From a bacterium (lineage in GTDB: Bacteria; UBA8248; JACPRG01; G963555815), in assembly GCA_965261595.1 (NCBI GenBank), contig CBDHDG010000006.1, positions 32,001 through 96,000 on the forward strand: 64,000 nt of DNA, written 5' to 3'. Below the pieces are notes generated by a model. That model saw only the letters and a list, made by a program, of their open reading frames with translations, did not search any database and was not told the DNA's origin. Of this stretch, positions 4,616 to 32,284 are shown piece after piece. Each line of letters opens with the position of its first letter. Positions within the stretch are counted from its first letter, which is position 1. The translations under genes were made by a program, and so were the position numbers.

Positions 4616-5446
4616 ATGCGCACCGAGGACGGCACCGGCCATGCCGGTGACATCCTATTGCAAGGGCCGGCGCGGGGCGAATCCGCGAAAGGCCTCGCCC
4701 AGGCCCGCGAGAACGGCGGACCCCTTCCCCGGCGCGAACCCGGCCGGCACGAAGCCCTTCGCCCCCAGAATCTCGGCGAGATCTCGGGCCCTTTCTGCCA
4801 CAATTTGAACAACCTACTGAATCACATCATCGGATCTCTGAACCTCATGATGACCAAGGAAGAAGGCCCGCACGAATGGGTCGAAAGCCTGGGAGAGATC
4901 GAGAAGACCGCCCAGGAGGCGGCCGAGCTCAACGGCCAGCTCGCCTCTCTCGTCCACCGCGAGGAGGGAGATCGAAAAGAACCGGTTCATCTCGGCCATC
5001 TGCTTCTGGGAGTCATCCATTTGACCGGACAATTTCCGAGCCGAAGAACCAAGCTGAATTATCACATCGAGCCGGATCTTCCGCCGGTCTATGCGAATCC
5101 GGCCGTTCTGGAGCAAGCGATCCTGTCTCTTCTTTTGGCCGCGAATCGATACGATGGGGTGAAAAGTCTGGTGTTCGCCTCAGCCGATCGAATCGACGGA
5201 GCCCTCTCATCCGAGGCGAAGGTCCGCGTCTACATCTCCCGCACCCCGGTCCGCGGAAATCCCCAGGCGTCGCCGTCCCGAAACATGCCGGAGCCGACGC
5301 CGACACACCCGAGCCTGCCGATAGTCGAGTCCATCATCCGCTCGCTCGGGGGCGAGGCGTCTTTTTCGATCACCGCCGACGAAGGGTTGGAATTCGAGAT
5401 CATCCTTCCGGCCGCGTCCCGGGACCAACCCGCAGAGCGGAACTAG
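4616..5446 (+). CDS. Histidine-kinase-like protein with degenerate ATPase domain
   Basis: The H-box CHNLNNLL and terminal GGEASF..EGLEFEIILP are present. N, G1 and G2 boxes are not recognisable. Confidence 0.65.
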   Translation: MRTEDGTGHAGDILLQGPARGESAKGLAQARENGGPLPRREPGRHEALRPQNLGEISGPFCHNLNNLLNHIIGSLNLMMTKEEGPHEWVESLGEIEKTAQEAAELNGQLASLVHREEGDRKEPVHLGHLLLGVIHLTGQFPSRRTKLNYHIEPDLPPVYANPAVLEQAILSLLLAANRYDGVKSLVFASADRIDGALSSEAKVRVYISRTPVRGNPQASPSRNMPEPTPTHPSLPIVESIIRSLGGEASFSITADEGLEFEIILPAASRDQPAERN

Positions 5447-5451
5447 CGCCC

Positions 5452-5802
5452 ATGGAAGAACACAAACACATGCGCCCCACAGTCCTCATCGTCGACGATG
5501 AATCCACAACACGGAATCTGGTCTCCAAGTTTCTCAACCGGGAGGGGTACCGAACGCTGACGGCCAAGGACGGGCCGGAAGCCCTGGAACTCTACGCGCT
5601 GAAGCAATCCGAGATTGATGTGACGCTTCTGGACGCGATGATGCCGGGAATGGACGGCTTTGAAACCATGGTCGCCATCCGGGAAATCGATCCGGATGCG
5701 GAATTCATCCTCTCCAGCGGCTTCCCGAAAGAGGTCTTCGCCGAATCGAACCTGAGCGGCGCTTTGCTGAAAAGCGCCGCCGGGTCCGGTCAGCCTCTCT
5801 GA
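5452..5802 (+). CDS. Single-domain response regulator
   Basis: VLIVDDE, LLDAMMPGMDG, ILSSG; the C-terminus is short or atypical. Confidence 0.8.
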   Translation: MEEHKHMRPTVLIVDDESTTRNLVSKFLNREGYRTLTAKDGPEALELYALKQSEIDVTLLDAMMPGMDGFETMVAIREIDPDAEFILSSGFPKEVFAESNLSGALLKSAAGSGQPL

Positions 5803-6191
5803 ACCCATCCTCGGGGCGTCCATTCCACCCCGGATTCGCGGACGGCCGTCCCGGGACCCCGCCGCGCTTGAGAGAAACCGGACCCCTGGTGAAAACCAGA
5901 GCGCGGCTCTCCGCGGCCGGACTTGCTCGACGGATGACCGGAACGCGCCCGCGCCCTTTCCCAAATTCCTGAGAAATTCGGGCTGAAATCATGTAAGATA
6001 CGTGTAGAGAAGGATCTTCCCGAGGACGGCCTGCGGGTTCTCTCACCACGGCGATTCCGGACGCCCCCCTGCCGGAGATCCAACCCATCACTCTCTCTTC
6101 CGAGCACACCGGGAGATCGCGCCCTTCCGCGCGGCCGGAATCTTTTGACACCGCCCCGGCCCCGCTCGATGGAACGGCGGCGTTCGAATCG

Positions 6192-8708
6192 ATGCGGACC
6201 GGCGTCTCCCCTCCCCCTCCCCCCTCCTGCCCCCCGCGTCCGGCCTCGCGGTTCGAAGCTCAGATTGATCTGCCCATCACCGGAATGTCCAACCTCGCGC
6301 GCGCATCCAGGCTGGAGAAAAATCTCTCGGCCACTCCGGGCGTCTCCTACGCCGGCGTGAACATCGAGACCGAGCGCGCCACCGTCCACTATGACCCGCG
6401 ATGGGTAACGGTTCTCCAGCTTGTCCGATGCGTGGAGGAAAGCGGCGGCGGCGTTGCCGCCGTCCGAACGACCCTGGCCGTTCAGGGATTGTCGTGCGGC
6501 TCCCGCGTATCGGACATCGAGCGGGCGCTCCGGGACGTCCCGGGCGTCCTGTCGGCGAACGTCAACCCGGCAACGGGCAGGGCGACGGTGGAATCCCTGC
6601 CCGGTCTTTCCGGCGAATCCGACCTGCGGGCCGCCATCAAGTCGGCCGGGCACAGTGTGTTGGAGGCCCCCGAAACGGAGCTCGCCGACCGGGAGGAGGA
6701 GGCGCGCAATCGCGAGGCCCGCTCCCTGTCCGCCGGATCTATCCTCGCCGGGACGCTTTCAGTCTTCATTGTTCTGGGGAGCATGGAGGGGGTGTCGACC
6801 CTCGTGGGGCCATGGCTCCCGAGCGTCTACCTCCTCTGGCTCTTGGCGACCCCCGTCCAGTTTTACGCCGGCCGGACCTTCTACCGGGGGGCCTGGGCGG
6901 CCGCGCGGCGCTGGGGCGCGGACGGGAACACCCTCATCGCCCTCGGGATCTCGACCGTCTACTTCTACAGCGCGGCCGCGGTTCTCTTTCCGGATTTCCT
7001 GCGCGGGATCGGCGACGAGCCCCGTCCGCATTTCGACGCCGCGGCGATCATGACCACCCTCATCCTCCTCGGCCGGCGGATCGAGGCCGCGGCCCGGGGA
7101 AGGAGCCGGGCGGCCGCCAAAAATCTCCGGGCGCTTCGGCCGAAGACCGTCCGCATTTTCCATGATGGCCGCGAGTGGGACATCCCCGCCGACCAGGTCC
7201 GGATCGAAAGCCGGGTTCTGGTCGGCCCCGGGGAGCGGGTTCCCGCGGATGGGGTCATCGTGGCGGGAGGGTCGAGTCTCGACGAATCCGGCGCGGCGGG
7301 CGGACGTCCCCCCGTGAACAAGGGCGTCGGCGACAAGGTGTTCGCCGGCGCGTTGAACATGACGGACCGCTTCCTGTTCGAAGTCCGGGCGGCCGGCCCG
7401 GAAACCGCGCTGGCCCGAACCGTCAAGCGGTTGGAAAACGCGCAAGGGCGCCCCGCCCCCATCCAGACCGCGGCTGGCCGGCCGGCCGCGGTCTTCGTTC
7501 CGGCGGTGATCGGGACGGCTCTCATCGCATTCACCCTCTGGCTGCTTCTCGGGCCGGCGCCCGCGTTCCACTCGGCGCTGTTGAGCTTTGCGGCGGTCCT
7601 GATCGTCGCCTCCCCGTGCGCTTTGGCGTTTGCGGCGCCGTCCGCCGTCCAGGTGGGCACGGGGCGCGGAGCGGAGAGCGGCATCCTGATCCGGGGCGGA
7701 GAAGCGCTGGAGGCGGCCTCCGGGATTCAAACCGTCATTTTTGAAAAGACGGGCGTCCTGACCGAGGGCAAACCCGAAGTGACGGACCTGATCACCGCCC
7801 ACGGATTCTCGGCCGAAGAGGTCCTGCGTCTCGCGGGATCCGCGGAGCGGCCATCCGGGCATCCCCTGGGGATCGCGATCTTGGACAAGGCCCGGCAGAG
7901 CGGCGTGGCCCTTACGGCCGCGGAAGGTTTCTCCGCCGTTGCGGGCCGCGGCGTCCGCGCCGCCGTGGAAGGGCGATCCATCGTTCTGGGAAACGCCGAA
8001 TTGATGGAGGCCGAAGGGGTGGACATCTCCGGCCTGCGCAACGCCATCGAAGTCCAGACCGAGAAGGGAAAGACCCCTGTGCTCCTCGCCGTCGACGGGG
8101 TTTCGGCCGCCCTGCTGGCGGCGGCGGACCCCTTGAAGGAGAGCGCCCGCGAGACCATCGAGAGACTTCACCGGATGGGTCTCGAAACCGTTCTGCTCAC
8201 CGGGGGCCACCGCCGCTCCGCCCAAGTCATCGCCGAGGAAGCGGGCGTCGGGCGCGTCCTGGCGGAGGTCCCCCCAGAGGACAAGGCCCGGGAGATCCTG
8301 CGTCTGCAGGGGGAGGGGGAGGGAAAAAGGGCGGCCATCGTAAGCAACGGCTTCCGCGAAGCCCCGGCCTCGGCGGACCTCGGAATCTCCATCGGGACCG
8401 GACCGGACGGCGGAAGAGGGAGGGATGGGGGGGTCTCGGACATCACCCTGATCGGCCGGGACCCCATGGACGTGGTGAACGCGATCCGTCTCAGCCGCCG
8501 TACGCTGAGGACCGTCAAACAGAACCTGTTTTGGGCATTCGCCTACAACGCGACCGCCATCCCCCTCGCCGCCGGCGCACTGCACCCCCTTTTCGGGTCG
8601 GCCCCGAGTCCGGTGGCGGCTTCCCTCGCCCTGGCCGCCGGCTCGGCCTTCGTCCTCTGGAACAGCCTGCGGCTGCGGCGCTTCCGGCCCGTGGAATTCA
8701 AGCCGTAA
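6192..8708 (+). CDS. CopA-like P1B heavy-metal ATPase homologue with degenerate catalytic motifs
   Basis: Two HMA-like domains, TM segments, GERVPADG, KQNLFWAFAYN and NSLRL. It has EKTGVLT in place of DKTGTLT, and other motifs are altered. Confidence 0.85.
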   Translation: MRTGVSPPPPPSCPPRPASRFEAQIDLPITGMSNLARASRLEKNLSATPGVSYAGVNIETERATVHYDPRWVTVLQLVRCVEESGGGVAAVRTTLAVQGLSCGSRVSDIERALRDVPGVLSANVNPATGRATVESLPGLSGESDLRAAIKSAGHSVLEAPETELADREEEARNREARSLSAGSILAGTLSVFIVLGSMEGVSTLVGPWLPSVYLLWLLATPVQFYAGRTFYRGAWAAARRWGADGNTLIALGISTVYFYSAAAVLFPDFLRGIGDEPRPHFDAAAIMTTLILLGRRIEAAARGRSRAAAKNLRALRPKTVRIFHDGREWDIPADQVRIESRVLVGPGERVPADGVIVAGGSSLDESGAAGGRPPVNKGVGDKVFAGALNMTDRFLFEVRAAGPETALARTVKRLENAQGRPAPIQTAAGRPAAVFVPAVIGTALIAFTLWLLLGPAPAFHSALLSFAAVLIVASPCALAFAAPSAVQVGTGRGAESGILIRGGEALEAASGIQTVIFEKTGVLTEGKPEVTDLITAHGFSAEEVLRLAGSAERPSGHPLGIAILDKARQSGVALTAAEGFSAVAGRGVRAAVEGRSIVLGNAELMEAEGVDISGLRNAIEVQTEKGKTPVLLAVDGVSAALLAAADPLKESARETIERLHRMGLETVLLTGGHRRSAQVIAEEAGVGRVLAEVPPEDKAREILRLQGEGEGKRAAIVSNGFREAPASADLGISIGTGPDGGRGRDGGVSDITLIGRDPMDVVNAIRLSRRTLRTVKQNLFWAFAYNATAIPLAAGALHPLFGSAPSPVAASLALAAGSAFVLWNSLRLRRFRPVEFKP

Positions 8709-28482: not shown

Positions 28483-28657
28483 CAAAAACTCCTTCTCGGC
28501 CCGCACCGGCCGGGCGCGCCATCGTTCACCGAATCCCCAATTATTTTACCATGAGTTCCGGAATTCATCCCACGGCGCTCCCGATTGGTAGTGGTCTAGT
28601 GGAGTTGACCCGGTTTGGTGGACACCTGATGATTTGGGGGTAAAGGAGGTGTTCACG

Positions 28658-28972
28658 ATGCCACAGACTCACCCACGCTATCCAATGGAGTTCCGCTGCC
28701 AGATGGTAGAGTTGGTCCGGGCGGGACGCACGCCCGAGGCGCTGGCGCACGAGTTCGAGCCCTCGGCGCAGACGATCCGCACCTGGGCCCATCAAGCCGA
28801 CGTTGACGAGGGGCGTCGCAAAGACGGGCTCACGAGCGATGAGCGGGAGGAGTTGCGCCGACTTCGCCGCGAGAACCGACAGCTCCGCCAGGAGCGGGAG
28901 ATCTTAGCAAAAGCCGCGGCCTGGTTTGCTCGGGATACCGATTCGATCCCGTCCGGATCTACGGGTTCGTGA
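28658..28972 (+). CDS. IS3 transposase OrfA
   Basis: HTH plus EELRRLRRENRQLRQEREILAKAAAWF. Slippery AAAAG at 28909-28913. Confidence 0.9.
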   Translation: MPQTHPRYPMEFRCQMVELVRAGRTPEALAHEFEPSAQTIRTWAHQADVDEGRRKDGLTSDEREELRRLRRENRQLRQEREILAKAAAWFARDTDSIPSGSTGS

Positions 28973-29817
28973 GGGCGAACCAGGCCATGTATCGGACCGC
29001 CACCATGTGCCGGGTGCTGGGCGTCTCCTCCAGCGGCTACTACGCGTGGCGCAGGCGCGCGCCGTGTGCCCGCTCGTGTGCCGATCGGGCGCTCACCAAA
29101 CGCATTCAGGCGATCCACGAGCGTTCTCGGGGGACTTACGGCGTGCCGCGCGTCCATGCCGAGTTGGAGGCTGAGGGAGTGCGTGTGGGCCGCAAGCGCG
29201 TCGCCAGGCTGATGCGTGGGGCGGGACTTGCGGGCGTCAGTCGGCGCAAGGGAGCGCGCACGACGCAGCGCCGGCAGGAGGCGCGGCCGGCCCCTGATCT
29301 GGTGGACCGCAACTTCACGGCCGAGGCCCCCGACCGGCTGTGGGTGGCCGACATCACCTACGTTCCGACATGGGCGGGGTTTTTGTATCTGGCCGTGGCG
29401 CTCGATGCGTTCAGCCGGCGCATCGTGGGGTGGTCGATGGCCACACACCTGCGGGCCGAGTTGGTGCTCGACGCGCTCGACATGGCGCTGTATAAGCGCC
29501 GTCCCCGGGCCGTCATCCACCACTCCGACCAGGGCACGCAGTACACCTCGGTCGCCTTTGGGCAGCGCTGCCGGCAGGCGGGCGTGCGTCCCTCCATGGG
29601 TTCGGTCGGGGACTGCTACGACAACGCGCTGTGTGAGAGCTTTTTCGCCACGCTGGAGTGCGAGCTCCTCGCTCGCCACAGTTTCCGCACCCGGGCCGAG
29701 GCGCGCATGGAGGTGTTCGGGTTCATCGAGGGCTTCTACAACCCGCATCGTCGGCACTCCTCCATCGACAACCTGTCACCCGTTAACTACGAAAGGAGAC
29801 AACAACGCACACCCTGA
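28969..29817 (+). CDS. IS3 transposase OrfB (DDE)
   Basis: WVADITY, HHSDQGTQY, DNALCESFF, YNPHRRHS. Confidence 0.93.
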   Translation: MRANQAMYRTATMCRVLGVSSSGYYAWRRRAPCARSCADRALTKRIQAIHERSRGTYGVPRVHAELEAEGVRVGRKRVARLMRGAGLAGVSRRKGARTTQRRQEARPAPDLVDRNFTAEAPDRLWVADITYVPTWAGFLYLAVALDAFSRRIVGWSMATHLRAELVLDALDMALYKRRPRAVIHHSDQGTQYTSVAFGQRCRQAGVRPSMGSVGDCYDNALCESFFATLECELLARHSFRTRAEARMEVFGFIEGFYNPHRRHSSIDNLSPVNYERRQQRTP

Positions 29818-29859
29818 AAACCCAAGTGCTTAACTCTCCACGAAACCGGGGTAAGTCCA

Positions 29860-29939
29860 CCATGGCTGCCGCCATATTTTCTGATTACATTGTCGTGAGA
29901 ATCAAGAACGTTCTGGACAGTCAAAAAAAATGGGGTCAT
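29860..29939 (-). pseudogene. N-terminal stub of a Doc/Fic-family toxin, cut by IS3
   Basis: ATG at 29939 gives MTPFFLTVQNVLDSHDNVIRKYGGSHG, matching the Doc N-terminus pattern (FLT...V..H...I..YGG..G). The frame enters the IS3 end at 29859. Not in the ORF track. Confidence 0.7.
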
Positions 29940-29948
29940 TTGGGCCGA

Positions 29949-29984
29949 AAAAAGGCCACAGCGAACACTCGCTGTGGCCTTTTT
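29949..29984. terminator. Perfect 16-bp hairpin with A/T tails between the antitoxin and toxin genes
   Basis: AAAAAGGCCACAGCGA-ACAC-TCGCTGTGGCCTTTTT. Confidence 0.75.
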
Positions 29985-30000
29985 CTCCTTCCTGGGAAAT

Positions 30001-30543
30001 CTATTTGGCTAGTGCCTCGAAATCCTTCCTGTATCTTGTGTGGATTTTCTCTCGGGCCCTTTCCAAAACCAATTCCCTTTGCTTTTTCATAACACCAGAA
30101 ACATCAAGGGGTTGATATTGCTCAGAACTCTTCATCGGGGCAGTCCCATAGACCTGTTGTAGGAATAGTCCAAATGAAAGGTGCCAAGTCTGACTAATCA
30201 ACTTCTTGAGCATGTCCCTAACCTCTTCAGGAAGATGTAAATCCTCTGGGGGTTTGGGAGCGATCCACTCATACCAACGTTTCCGTGTCCCAAATGGGGT
30301 CGTATCTGCCCAGACTTTTACTTTCTCTTCTTTTTCAAGGGTTTTCACGGACCCATCTGCGTCTGGAACAAATGGGCCGTAATCATCCCAAAACCATTGA
30401 ATATCTGTGAGTTGTTCCCCACGTCTCCATGCCCATTCGACATCGGCGAGATAGAGTAGTTTTGTAAGTCGAGCCCTGGTAAGCTCATCCGGCTTCGGGT
30501 ACTCTGAGATCACGAACGCCACCAAATCCTTTAACGTTGCCAT
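30001..30543 (-). CDS. Panacea (DUF4065/SocA/GepA) antitoxin with Phd-like C-terminal helix
   Basis: RLTKLLYLAD, WDDYGPF, VYGTAPM; C-terminus REKIHTRYRKDFEALAK. Confidence 0.85.
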   Translation of the reverse strand: MATLKDLVAFVISEYPKPDELTRARLTKLLYLADVEWAWRRGEQLTDIQWFWDDYGPFVPDADGSVKTLEKEEKVKVWADTTPFGTRKRWYEWIAPKPPEDLHLPEEVRDMLKKLISQTWHLSFGLFLQQVYGTAPMKSSEQYQPLDVSGVMKKQRELVLERAREKIHTRYRKDFEALAK

Positions 30544-30630
30544 TTGCCGACCCCTCCTAAATTCAATAGTAGTCCTCAAATTCAAGGCACGTCAAATCAT
30601 TTTCTGCATTGCGAAAAGAATATGGATATT

Positions 30631-30673
30631 TAGATACGTATCTATTGACAGGCAATATGTAATGGGCTATATT
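30631..30673 (+). promoter_or_regulatory. Sigma70 promoter with abutting palindromic operator
   Basis: TTGACA (30645-30650), 17-nt spacer, TATATT (30668-30673). Perfect palindrome TAGATACGTATCTA at 30631-30644. Confidence 0.75.
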
Positions 30674-30698
30674 GGTTATCGACACTGGGAGAAAAATC

Positions 30699-31139
30699 AT
30701 GAATTTCCTTGAATCCGTAGAAGCTCAAATCAAAATCCTCAAACACGAGGAAGCCATTGTCCTGAAAGAGATGGCACCGCTCCAGAACAAACTTGAGTTA
30801 ATGAGGCTCCAAATAGCCCACCTGGATGGGTATTTGACTACCCTTGGTTCAGGGGTGCTAGGCGGGGCAACCACTGAAAAAGAACCCATTACCGAAAAGA
30901 TTGTTCGTGTCTTTGAGCGTTCGAAAAGCCCCCTCCACTACATGGAGGTCATGGATTTGCTTGAAACGCAAGAGGGCTTCGTGCTGGGCGGTAAAGACCC
31001 CAAAGCCAATATGACCGCTAAGCTCGCTGGAAGCGCCAAGTTCAAGCGCCTGGAGCGTGGAGTCTATATCCTGTCGGAGTGGGCGGAAAAAGAGGAATCC
31101 CCAGCAAGTGAGGAACCTGCTGGGGATTCCAATGATTAG
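30699..31139 (+). CDS. Coiled-coil plus winged HTH (HARE-HTH-like) protein
   Basis: Heptad-rich N-terminus; KSPLHYMEV...GKDPKANMTAKL...FKRLERGVYILSEW; GGGAG RBS. Confidence 0.75.
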   Translation: MNFLESVEAQIKILKHEEAIVLKEMAPLQNKLELMRLQIAHLDGYLTTLGSGVLGGATTEKEPITEKIVRVFERSKSPLHYMEVMDLLETQEGFVLGGKDPKANMTAKLAGSAKFKRLERGVYILSEWAEKEESPASEEPAGDSND

Positions 31140-31140
31140 C

Positions 31141-31233
31141 GGCGGGGTGGCTGAGTGGCTTATAGCGTGGGATTTATAATCCCTTGGTCGGTGCTTACCC
31201 ACCGGCACGCAGGTTCGAATCCTGTCCCTGCCG
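31141..31233 (+). tRNA. Class-II (long variable arm) tRNA-like gene, anticodon UAU, Ser-like body
   Basis: Acceptor GGCGGGG/CCCTGCC; D arm GCT-GAGTGGCTTAT-AGC; anticodon arm (T)GGGA-TTTATAA-TCCC(T) with TAT at 31175-31177; variable stem GTCGGTG/CACCGGC; T arm GCAGG-TTCGAAT-CCTGT; discriminator G followed by CCT. Confidence 0.85.
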
Positions 31234-31247
31234 CCTATAATTTCTAG

Positions 31248-31282
31248 TGGGTCTCAAGGGTGCAGACACACCCAAGAGACCC
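31248..31282 (+). other. Stem-loop downstream of the tRNA-like gene
   Basis: GGGTCTC-aa-GGGTG-cagaca-CACCC-aa-GAGACCC. Confidence 0.5.
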
Positions 31283-31409
31283 TTGGTCACACCATCCGGG
31301 AGCACCCGAACAATGCAACCCGACACCCCTCAAGATACTCCTTTAAATCTGGAGAATCAAGCGGAATGTGACGGGCATTGCTCCTGGACCACCAAGGGAG
31401 CATCCGTCA

Positions 31410-32228
31410 ATGAACCGCCTTCACCGATCTCGACAGGTCCAGATTCTCTCAATGCTCACTGAGGGTGTGAGCATCTGCGCCATCTCCCGAATCACCGGAG
31501 TCCACAAGGTCACGATTCTCAAGCTCTTGAAGGAAACGAGCGAGAAGTGTGAGGCTCTGCTGGATTCCAAGATGCGGGATATCCCGGCAAAGGAAATCCA
31601 GGCCGACGAAATCTGGACGTACGTTGCTAAGAAGCAACGAAAAGTCCGAAGTTCCGATGGACGGGGGGTAGGCGATCAATTCATCTTCGTGGCCCTGGAA
31701 GCGGAAACCAAGCTCGTCCCTTGCTACGCCGTGGGGAAACGGGACGCCCTCACCGCCACTCGGTTCATGATGGATCTGCGACGACGGATTCAGGGCAGGG
31801 TGCAGTTGACCACGGATGCTTTCCGCCCCTATCCCGATGCCGTTGAAAGGGCTTTCGGGGCGGATGTGGATTACGCCCAACTCATAAAGGCGTTCCGGTC
31901 CAATGGATTCACAAGGGAGGTCTACAACCCAAGCGATATAATTGAGACAATCCCGATAACCATAATGGGAAACCCGAACAAGCGGTCAATCTCAACCAGC
32001 TACATTGAGCGGCAGAATTTGACCATGCGGATGCAGATGCGCCGCCTCACTCGGCTGACGAATGGATTCAGCAAAAAGCTGGATAACTTGAAGGCGGCCT
32101 TGGCGTTACACTTCGCCTGGTACAATTTCGGGCGGATTCATCAGACCTTGAAGGTCACGCCCGCGATGGAATCGGGGATCACGGACCATCTGTGGGGATG
32201 GGAAGATATCATGGATTGGTCAAACTAG
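31410..32228 (+). CDS. IS1-family transposase (single ORF)
   Basis: N-terminal HTH, IQADEIWTYV, VGKRD, LTTDAF, STSYIERQNLTMR..RRLTRLTNGFSKK; the stop lies in the right IR. Confidence 0.92.
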   Translation: MNRLHRSRQVQILSMLTEGVSICAISRITGVHKVTILKLLKETSEKCEALLDSKMRDIPAKEIQADEIWTYVAKKQRKVRSSDGRGVGDQFIFVALEAETKLVPCYAVGKRDALTATRFMMDLRRRIQGRVQLTTDAFRPYPDAVERAFGADVDYAQLIKAFRSNGFTREVYNPSDIIETIPITIMGNPNKRSISTSYIERQNLTMRMQMRRLTRLTNGFSKKLDNLKAALALHFAWYNFGRIHQTLKVTPAMESGITDHLWGWEDIMDWSN

Positions 32229-32284
32229 ACCACTACCTCCCGATTCTCCGGCTTGCCGGGAAGGCGTCCGACCCACGCCGAAAG

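Follow-up and report, generated by a model that had tools for sequence, protein, structure and literature searches.

We describe a transfer RNA (tRNA) gene, at 31141-31233 of a 64-kb bacterial window (the whole stretch of DNA analysed: 64,000 nucleotides, positions 32,001 to 96,000 of contig CBDHDG010000006.1, assembly GCA_965261595.1), that joins a serine-type body to the anticodon UAU and lies within an insertion sequence (IS) of the IS1 family. In our favoured interpretation, to which we assign a probability of roughly 0.42, this tRNA would be a working cargo gene of the IS1-family element (28587-32237), residing in a chromosome of 63% G+C (GC), and would decode AUA codons for the element's own transposase. 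The evidence comes from the fold of the tRNA and the covariation in its relatives, from the boundaries of the mobile unit, and from a cluster of AUA codons (ATA in the DNA) in the transposase genes linked to such tRNAs.

A serine-type tRNA with anticodon UAU

31141-31236, + strand: serine-type class II tRNA, anticodon UAU (31141-31233), then CCT (ARAGORN, Rfam, fold and covariation)

ARAGORN finds a single tRNA in the window, tRNA-Ile(tat) at 31141-31235 on the + strand, and the Rfam model RF00005 matches 31141-31233 over its full length (1-71) with 54.2 bits (E 7e-09), the gathering score being 29. The acceptor stem, GGCGGGG/CCCTGCC, is paired at 7 of 7 positions, including G1:C72, G2:C71, C3:G70 and G4:U69, and is followed by U8 and G9, by a D stem of four pairs that include G13:U22, with a 9-nt loop containing GG, and by an anticodon stem of four pairs and a U27-U43 mismatch, whose loop UUUAUAA gives the anticodon UAU. 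The variable region has 24 nt, folding by energy into a 7-bp stem with a 6-nt loop, and the T arm, GCAGG-UUCGAAU-CCUGU, leads to G73 and then to CCT at 31234-31236. The upstream open reading frame (ORF) ends with the stop codon TAG at 31137-31139 and the tRNA begins 2 nt downstream; two extra pairs, C31140:G31233 (C-1:G73) and G31139:C31234 (G-2:C74), could extend the acceptor helix to 9 bp. The initial annotation, made from the window without database searches, had listed the cloverleaf, the 7-bp variable stem, G73, G1:C72, G2:C71, G4:U69, U27:U43, the UAU anticodon, the CCT tail, the 2-nt gap and the 9-bp extension, and all of these can be read from the sequence. A hairpin with a GGCU/GGCU tetraloop is an alternative seen in the energy fold only. 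As the single-sequence fold energy is unexceptional (z = -1.5; 16 of 200 shuffles fold equally well), the reality of the tRNA rests on the covariance-model score and on covariation in the relatives.

The relatives came from a scan of a species-genome collection with three motifs, namely the T loop, the anticodon loop YUUAUAA and GAGNGG in the D loop; the pattern included no stems besides two T-stem pairs, and as it fixed the UAU loop itself, UAU in all scan loci reflects the design of the search. The scan yielded 75 loci (given L numbers below), 70 of them tRNA-like by our own parse and five (L010, L017, L044, L067 and L071) looking like chance matches. ARAGORN calls a tRNA(tat) of 85-98 nt at 58 of the 75, and it misses ten of the 70 that have very long variable regions of 29-37 nt. 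The tRNA-like loci derive from several bacterial phyla and two archaeal genomes, with Acidobacteriota supplying many of the 75, and together with the window they make 68 distinct sequences. Over these sequences the cloverleaf is paired in 87.7% of cells versus 61.3% in shuffles, and the covariation score is 0.686 versus 0.184 after shuffling and 0.085-0.163 with the partners slid; 0 of 500 shuffles reach either value. Both sides have changed in 24 of the 27 stem pairs, including all six tested pairs at the base of the long arm, so the stem covariation among homologues that the initial annotation had set as a check is present.

The serine-like character of the body, also proposed initially, was borne out by the alignment of the window tRNA with an annotated E. 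coli tRNA-Ser (D arm, long-arm base and G73) and by the conservation in the family of U8-G9 (68/68), G13-A22 (52/68) and G73 (59/68), to which G1:C72 (51/68) and G2:C71 (50/68) can be added. The window tRNA and 50/68 relatives have a canonical cloverleaf with a 7-bp acceptor and a 5-bp T stem (7/5), a normal D loop (G18 G19) and a normal T loop; the encoded tail is CCA in 19/68, and 12 more have CC followed by a different base. A blastn search with the window tRNA against phages, plasmids and E. coli genomes gave no match, and the more typical family member L018, used as query, reached annotated E. coli tRNA-Ser genes over only 35 nt at E 0.8. The window tRNA thus has the base-paired long arm, G73, G1:C72 and G2:C71 of a serine tRNA, with UAU in place of a serine anticodon (NGA or GCU), and its 24-nt variable region and G73 set it apart from an isoleucine tRNA, which is class I with a short variable loop and A73. 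By these comparisons we regard it as confirmed to be a genuine tRNA gene with a serine-type body and an anticodon predicted to read AUA.

The tRNA as cargo of an IS1-family element

28579-28586: left copy of the target-site duplication TCCCGATT, an identical octamer on both flanks
28587-28599, + strand: left terminal inverted repeat GGTAGTGGTCTAG, first 13 nt only, the reverse complement of the right end
28600-29862, + strand: nested IS3-family element, ends approximate, with orfA at 28634-28972 and orfB at 28969-29817 (Pfam HTH_Tnp_1, rve and HTH_21; GC 66%)
30001-30585, - strand: cargo gene for a SocA/Panacea-domain protein, 194 amino acids (aa) (PF13274, E 1.3e-06, 29.7 bits against a cut-off of 25.7)
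31410-32228, + strand: IS1-family transposase, 272 aa from ATG 31410, with GTG 31368 as a possible start (PF03400, 27.5 bits against a cut-off of 24.1)
32218-32237, - strand: right terminal inverted repeat, 20 nt, from the repeat search
32238-32245: right copy of the target-site duplication TCCCGATT

The tRNA lies within a unit of 3,651 bp, 28587-32237, which has terminal inverted repeats and a perfect 8-bp target duplication and is inserted between ispH and a methyltransferase gene. The left repeat was missed by a 20-nt search allowing 3 mismatches and was located through its 8-nt core, split by the nested IS3, which has displaced the remainder to a place beyond it where it is only doubtfully recognisable; a GGTAGTGGTCTAG-type repeat also bounds the related unit at L022. 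Judged by these ends, the 3,651 bp between the repeats arrived as a single unit. Without the nested IS3 the element has a GC content of 50.5%, versus 62.8% for the rest of the window, and its genes run in the order Panacea gene, promoter, coiled-coil/winged-helix gene, tRNA, hairpin and transposase, with the IS3 at the left end. The IS3 has end-like inverted repeats, read by eye, and no target duplication of its own could be made out; the three genes of the window copy are intact despite it.

An IS1-type DDE transposase, terminal inverted repeats (the left one interrupted by the IS3) and an 8-bp duplication are what define the IS1 family, and all occur here. The best NCBIfam model for the transposase is IS1 (E 3.2e-20), and as its 72.9 bits are under the cut-off of 100, the protein is a divergent member; it is 90% identical to the L022 protein, and its plasmid homologues are annotated as IS1 family. 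In the light of this context the tRNA is the cargo of a foreign low-GC IS1-family element and not a host gene.

That placement bears on the idea, contained in the initial annotation, of a host tRNA that polices foreign DNA, which does not survive for the window, the tRNA itself being foreign cargo. A broader version, in which the tRNA would be a host weapon mistranslating AUA-rich, AT-rich invaders such as phages and plasmids, draws on the rarity of AUA in the host and on the cas genes near the relatives at L060, L063 and L065, the OLD-type nucleases at L028 and L046 and the SIR2-like gene at L052. We consider it highly improbable, given that the window copy belongs to the invader, that 0 of 7 proteins (the three cargo proteins of the window and four upstream ORFs elsewhere) rose above noise in PADLOC, and that there is no evident trigger or sensor; besides, defence genes and IS elements commonly share islands, which makes co-location a weak argument.

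The window copy is not alone. The unit at L022 (1,772 bp) holds a regulator, the tRNA and a transposase, with a related promoter and the same 2-nt junction between stop codon and tRNA, and window 31137-32237 is 85.4% identical to L022 5985-7085. A mobile unit starting at the 5' end of the tRNA, as this 85% block might suggest, was rejected, since the repeats and duplications put the starts upstream of the regulator gene. At L019 (2,950 bp) and L059 (2,169 bp), repeats of the window type likewise enclose regulator, tRNA and transposase; the flank duplications of these two units and of L022 are 7/8 or looser. The unit at L049 (2,352 bp) is bounded by different repeats, perfect over at least 18 nt, and its tRNA faces away from the transposase; no flank duplication was seen. 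Besides these four further IS1 units, one unrelated and triplicated IS carries a UAU tRNA internally: L013, L026 and L050 (about 4958-7493 in the orientation of the tRNA) are three copies of 2.53 kb, 99.9-100% identical and from one genome, each containing the tRNA, an ORF of 174 aa that looks like a coiled coil and a transposase with DDE_Tnp_1 and SWIM domains. L072 is a diverged version of this IS. Altogether 26 or more of the 58 ARAGORN-positive loci have a transposase near the tRNA, counted when it is the first or second ORF to either side or is matched by tblastn.

A cluster of AUA codons in the linked transposases

31884-31964, + strand: AUA cluster, all four ATA codons of the transposase gene (31884, 31938, 31956 and 31962) within 27 codons, by codon count

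The four ATA codons of the window transposase stand a short way upstream of its conserved STSYIERQN motif. In the host genes ATA makes up 15 of 13,043 codons, i.e. 1.15 per 1000 and 2.1% of the isoleucine codons, which agrees with the rarity assumed in the initial annotation. Of the AUA-rich foreign genes invoked there, the one nearest to the tRNA is the element's own transposase. Across the 13 tRNA-linked IS1 transposases, which are mostly 50% identical or less, ATA accounts for 35 of the 46 isoleucine codons in alignment columns 232-260 versus 22 of 188 outside them (odds ratio 24, Fisher p 2e-17, uncorrected for the relatedness of the 13 sequences). The columns occupied by ATA shift between the proteins, and the GC content at third positions of codons other than isoleucine is 0.56 in the region versus 0.52 outside, so that the stretch is not simply AT-rich. 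Together these observations argue that the codon itself, and not a DNA motif, is what selection acts on.

As controls we took four plasmid IS1 homologues, of 45-48% identity, that have no tRNA within 2.5 kb. They contain 0, 0, 0 and 1 ATA codons, none in the cluster region, and ATA provides 0 of their 10 isoleucine codons there and 0 of 14 in a wider stretch. These plasmid loci (L076-L079) are flanked by a divergent helix-turn-helix (HTH) gene of about 370-390 aa together with a gene of about 150 aa, and one of them adjoins a Shedu nuclease gene; a pair of genes of the same sizes lies upstream of the tRNA at L003.

The upstream regulator and the proposed mechanism

30632-30673, + strand: palindrome AGATACGTATCT (30632-30643), then the promoter-like TTGACA-17-TATATT (30645-30673), 11/12 consensus matches
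30699-31139, + strand: coiled-coil plus winged-helix protein, 146 aa from ATG 30699 (AlphaFold 2 (AF2) model and family hidden Markov model (HMM))
31094-31130, + strand: 16-bp hairpin within the 3' end of the winged-helix ORF, separated from the tRNA by 10 nt (inverted repeat 94% complementary; z = -2.95)
31249-31282, + strand: 14-bp hairpin between tRNA and transposase gene, kept in L022 through compensating changes and without a T run after it

The -35 box and a GGGCTATATT block recur ahead of the L022 homologue, and the palindrome at 30632-30643 may serve as an operator. No promoter-like or terminator-like site was found on the + strand between 30673 and 32237, so that regulator, tRNA and transposase would share a single transcript, from which the tRNA would be cut.

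The product of the first gene, labelled HTH in the initial annotation, combines in the AF2 model a long helix (residues 3-50) with a winged helix (64-125). It is thus a protein of the coiled-coil plus winged-helix type, and it recurs upstream of other tRNAs of this kind. The mean pLDDT is 73.6, and the best fold matches, winged helices of the RNA polymerase delta/HARE type and of the forkhead type, are weak (E 0.035). The nearest Atlas clusters are unnamed, HARE-HTH occurring in 14% of the members of one. The family, with 288 representatives at E<=1e-3, has an HMM that finds ORFs adjoining tRNA(UAU) in L022, L053 and L016. The L022 regulator is recognisable by profile only (E 1.4e-10), the two regulator genes being homologous yet far more diverged than the tRNA-transposase block. 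Among the other small upstream ORFs, BLASTP links only L003, L021, L049 and L056 to one another and L013 to L072; in single-sequence hhalign comparison with the window family, L022 reaches a probability of 97% and the others 35% or less. The AF2 model of the L049-group ORF is poor (pLDDT 60.1), and a fold search with it returned nothing below E 0.5. We had considered a 3' remnant of a tmRNA, or an integration site, in front of the L022 tRNA, and discarded it because the stretch falls inside the winged-helix ORF and the IS boundaries.

From this arrangement the following mechanism can be envisioned. One strong promoter would transcribe the winged-helix regulator, the tRNA and the transposase of the element, and excision of the tRNA would split the transcript into a regulator mRNA and a transposase mRNA. 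The mature tRNA, with all the hallmarks of a bacterial serine tRNA and the anticodon UAU, would read AUA, which is among the three rarest sense codons of the host, and its main client would be the AUA cluster just upstream of the region of the catalytic glutamate. The element's own DNA would in this way set the speed and the residue with which that stretch is translated, amounting to a private translational control of transposition. Possibly, starved AUA codons would yield a stalled or truncated, catalytically dead protein, and the tRNA would restore the full-length product. Co-translational control of transposases occurs in other IS families.

Amino-acid identity and the case against the mechanism

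Seryl-tRNA synthetase (SerRS) recognises the long arm, G73, G1:C72 and G2:C71, and ignores the anticodon. Since the window tRNA keeps these elements and lacks those of isoleucine tRNAs (A73, short loop), serine is the amino acid to expect, and by these identity rules charging by SerRS is probable. Charging by isoleucyl-tRNA synthetase (IleRS) through the anticodon seems unlikely.

A serine-charged tRNA sits uneasily with the columns in which the ATA codons fall. In the other sequences these columns are 49% I/L/V/M/F/C and 3% serine, much like the ATT/ATC columns (55% and 3%), and the columns of serine codons in the linked transposases are 16% hydrophobic; the notion that AUA is read as serine in these proteins was dropped on this account, the profiles fitting isoleucine. 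With columns so like those of isoleucine, serine insertion would damage the AUA positions unless it is intended or the tRNA carries isoleucine, and this is the first of several points that weigh against our interpretation. The cluster is absent from three of the 13 linked transposases (L038, L049 and L057), and the controls are only four in number and all from alphaproteobacterial plasmids. Transposases of other families found beside such tRNAs (four DDE_Tnp_1, seven IS1595 and one IS66 orf2) have a few scattered ATA codons and no cluster, and the codon link therefore cannot be the general reason for the presence of the tRNA on mobile DNA. The window copy may be immobile, its left end being split by the IS3. 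The six allo-tRNA(UAU) variants assayed in E. coli were inactive as amber suppressors (PMC5389517). Finally, promoter-like sites noted by eye lie before the transposase gene at L016, L019 and L006, with a palindrome of the type CTTGAGCG-CTCAAG between -35 and -10, and, in a different sequence, between tRNA and transposase at L059; in these four units the transposase appears to have its own promoter and to be separately transcribed and repressible, so that co-transcription would not be universal.

The Ile-like columns could also be taken to mean that we are dealing with a true isoleucine tRNA, charged by IleRS via UAU despite its serine-type body. Like phage tRNAs, it would then simply give a low-GC element the means to have AUA read in a high-GC host. 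The ATA codons of the transposases interchange with ATT and ATC at hydrophobic columns, ATA is used far more in the genes of the element than in those of the host, and 17 bacterial genomes are reported to have tRNA-Ile(UAU) genes in place of the lysidine tRNA (tRNAscan-SE 2.0 preprint). The body speaks for serine throughout: G73, not A73, in 59/68, together with the long arm, U8-G9, G13-A22 and G1:C72/G2:C71, and by the identity rules at least part of the pool should carry serine, which leaves this explanation rather doubtful. Three readings of the Ile-like columns remain for the proposed AUA decoder, namely that the tRNA accepts isoleucine too, that serine is tolerated at poorly conserved positions, or that mis-decoding or the relief of pausing is itself the control.

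A toxin module as an alternative

The order of the genes invites another explanation. A palindrome-bearing promoter, a small DNA-binding protein and an effector 2 nt further on recall a type II toxin-antitoxin operon, and the tRNA, charged with serine, could be toxic by mistranslating AUA (through wobble, perhaps AUG), with the winged-helix protein as its repressor or binder, in a module that stabilises insertion sequences, defence islands and cas operons. In 16 of 59 sources the tRNA is preceded, at a distance of at most 100 nt, by a co-oriented ORF of 110-185 aa, the carriers are unrelated (IS1, the DDE_Tnp_1 IS and the cas loci L060, L063 and L065), and toxin-antitoxin genes lie near L062 (ParE-like) and L036 (HicA). 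Mukai et al. report that growth stopped and cells died when missense allo-tRNAs were induced, and that two of six allo-tRNA(UAU) variants were lethal (PMC5389517). We nevertheless think such a module unlikely. Just four of the upstream ORFs are demonstrably homologous to the window protein, the rest being alike in size and position only; the best, weak folds of the winged-helix protein are DNA-binding and nothing indicates RNA binding; at 1.15 AUA per 1000 host codons the toxicity would be small; and the AUA cluster of the element's own transposase would go unexplained.

No protein toxin ORF lies beside the Panacea gene or beside the winged-helix gene, as a type II system would have, and the sole candidate effector near the two genes is an RNA. 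The neighbours of this SocA-like antitoxin gene are only the divergent regulator-tRNA operon and a terminator (a hairpin and T run at about 29951-29985, past its stop codon). Neither the Panacea nor the winged-helix protein has an NCBIfam or PADLOC match, and tblastn found no Panacea relatives at the other loci (75 searched).

Variation and neighbourhoods within the family

Strong, GC-rich hairpins occur a few nt before the 5' end of the tRNA, with z<-2 at 15 of 69 family loci and z<-1 at 27 of 69; comparing the 50 nt upstream of the tRNA with random windows of the same loci gave a Wilcoxon p of 0.003. Some of them are plain terminators and others lack a T run. Base -1 is C or U, pairable with G73, in 40 of the 50 members with an intact acceptor, and G-2:C74 is also pairable in 16 of those 40; such pairing might displace the RNase P cut or imitate an acceptor stem of 8 bp. 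Fourteen family sequences have five or fewer acceptor pairs. Thirteen of them (L023, L024, L028-L031, L033, L034, L043, L048, L052, L064 and L075, with L042 the same sequence as L030) keep the whole cloverleaf with the first acceptor positions mismatched, and may be uncharged variants or integration scars; several are flavobacterial and stand beside an HTH/S24-peptidase repressor and a DUF2188 gene. The fourteenth, L022, owes its low score solely to a 1-nt insertion in the T stem.

Features of this kind could mean that the RNA does not decode at all, its tRNA shape serving as a processing signal for RNase P and RNase Z, as a 3' stabiliser of the regulator mRNA or as a decoy, such that regulator and transposase are uncoupled and the anticodon is irrelevant. 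The position of the tRNA 2 nt past a stop codon, between two ORFs and with a hairpin on each side, would suit such a role, as would the enrichment of upstream hairpins, the possible -1:73 pairing, the 14/68 members in which mismatches at positions 1-2 make charging hardly possible, and the translational inactivity of published UAU variants (PMC5389517). A cleavage signal could do without G73, a CCA or CC tail, an anticodon loop of the canonical 7 nt and the bases of tertiary contacts, all of which are kept. The AUA cluster of the neighbouring gene, too, points to a role for the anticodon, and we hold this alternative to be very unlikely.

A second, irregular and short tRNA lies close to the UAU tRNA, at a distance of between a few and about 50 nt, at L016 (5571-5644), L006 (709-784), L054 (5908-5984) and L035 (5865-5938), labelled by ARAGORN as Ser-gct, Thr-cgt, Ser-act or Cys-gca. 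These resemble the polycistrons of irregular tRNAs described for allo-tRNAs (PMC5389517).

Family loci away from transposases lie in cas operons or beside OLD-type nucleases or toxin genes, with a few among housekeeping genes. Within type I cas clusters, UAU tRNAs occur at L060 (5989-6075), L062 (2730-2816), L063 (5990-6078) and L065 (5990-6077), among cas3, cas6, cas2 and a large cas8-like gene, each with a promoter-like site and a leader hairpin, in a position that recalls CRISPR-repressed RNA toxins. At L018 and L032 (both 5989-6078) nearly the same UAU tRNA, with an encoded CCA in L018 and CCT in L032, has the gene for topoisomerase IV subunit A on one side and housekeeping genes on the other, none of the nearest ORFs being a mobile gene; it could be a chromosomal missense tRNA.

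Relation to known systems

The closest published relatives are the allo-tRNAs of Acidobacteria and soil metagenomes, among which UAU is the most abundant anticodon group (Mukai et al., NAR 2017, PMC5389517), and the occurrence of allo-tRNA(UAU) near toxin-antitoxin genes, which the initial annotation had mentioned, is indeed in print, together with that near transposon-related genes (PMC5389517; review PMC7609411). The window tRNA shares with them the long variable arm, the discriminator base (G73 here, G73 or U73 in allo-tRNAs), a non-serine UAU anticodon, a presumed SerRS identity and the transposon neighbourhood (PMC5389517). It departs from them in structure. Allo-tRNAs have a 12-bp branch divided 8/4 or 9/3 (PMC5389517), and the 7-bp acceptor and 5-bp T stem of the window tRNA do not make it an allo-tRNA; an 8/4 register would need U8 paired with U65, and the possible 9-bp helix stands atop a 5-bp T stem. 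Nor do the window tRNA and 50/68 relatives have the long D stem with a tetraloop and the 6-bp anticodon stem of allo-tRNAs (PMC5389517). The ten family loci with 29-37 nt arms may overlap the published five-stem-junction forms (PMC5389517). By the published structural description, then, we file the window tRNA as a canonical-shaped relative of allo-tRNA(UAU), not a member. The portions of the allo-tRNA paper covered here make no mention of internal IS cargo or of an AUA cluster (PMC5389517).

Bacterial tRNA-Ser is matched in U8-G9, the GCYG/AGNGG D arm, G13-A22 (here G13:U22), G1:C72, G2:C71, G73 and a long arm with two unpaired bases at either side, and differs in its anticodon, in not being encoded on an IS and in a variable region that, in the aligned E. 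coli gene, is shorter than the 24 nt found here. The reading of AUA is shared with tRNA-Ile2 (lysidine-CAU) and the rare tRNA-Ile3 (UAU), which belong to class I and have A73 and a short variable loop, unlike the window tRNA with its long arm and G73. Isoleucine tRNAs with a UAU anticodon are present in a few bacteria, according to the tRNAscan-SE 2.0 preprint. Another natural bacterial tRNA in which the identity of the body and the anticodon disagree is the tRNA-ProX of Streptomyces, which has a dedicated synthetase, ProRSx, and odd core bases (A33, A15-A48), unlike the window tRNA with its canonical core and no linked synthetase gene (PMC11415595).

The window element is like other IS1 elements in the DDE_Tnp_IS1 domain, the short terminal inverted repeats and the 8-bp target duplication. 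It is unlike them in its single transposase ORF, with no frameshift site noted and a score below the NCBIfam IS1 cut-off, and in carrying a regulator, a tRNA and a Panacea gene. The logic of rare-codon tRNA scarcity recalls the CreT RNA toxins, which exploit rare codons such as AUA, and some family members lie in cas operons; CreT differs in being a small RNA, similar to an mRNA, by which a host tRNA is sequestered (PMC8501985), the RNA described here being itself a tRNA. The literature searches turned up neither a serine-type UAU tRNA of 7/5 form nor a tRNA carried as cargo by an IS nor a transposase AUA cluster, and the terms allo-tRNA, UAU and transpos- are absent from a 2024 review of mistranslation (PMC11415595).

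Implications

Serine-type tRNAs with an isoleucine anticodon had been reported once before, in the form of allo-tRNAs with an odd shape and no known use, which failed when tried in E. coli. What is new is a canonical-shaped relative that is widespread, lies inside defined insertion sequences and has a counterpart in the codon-specific AUA cluster of the transposases of those elements. A bolder form of the idea, which we think unlikely as a whole, is that mobile units hold a private, serine-charged AUA missense tRNA under a winged-helix regulator, which would rewrite or pace the transposase at the AUA cluster and so switch between inactive, inhibitory and active forms, and that in cas operons and defence islands the same portable cassette of regulator and tRNA would stand guard as an RNA toxin; if true, the element would hold a local deviation of the genetic code.

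If the link between tRNA and AUA cluster is functional, this would be the first transposable element to control its own transposase via a self-encoded tRNA, and the tRNA would represent a missense or dual-identity tRNA occurring in nature whose client can be named. The finding would also bear on tRNA annotation, where such genes are now called tRNA-Ile, on surveys of codon reassignment and on the use of orthogonal tRNAs in synthetic biology.

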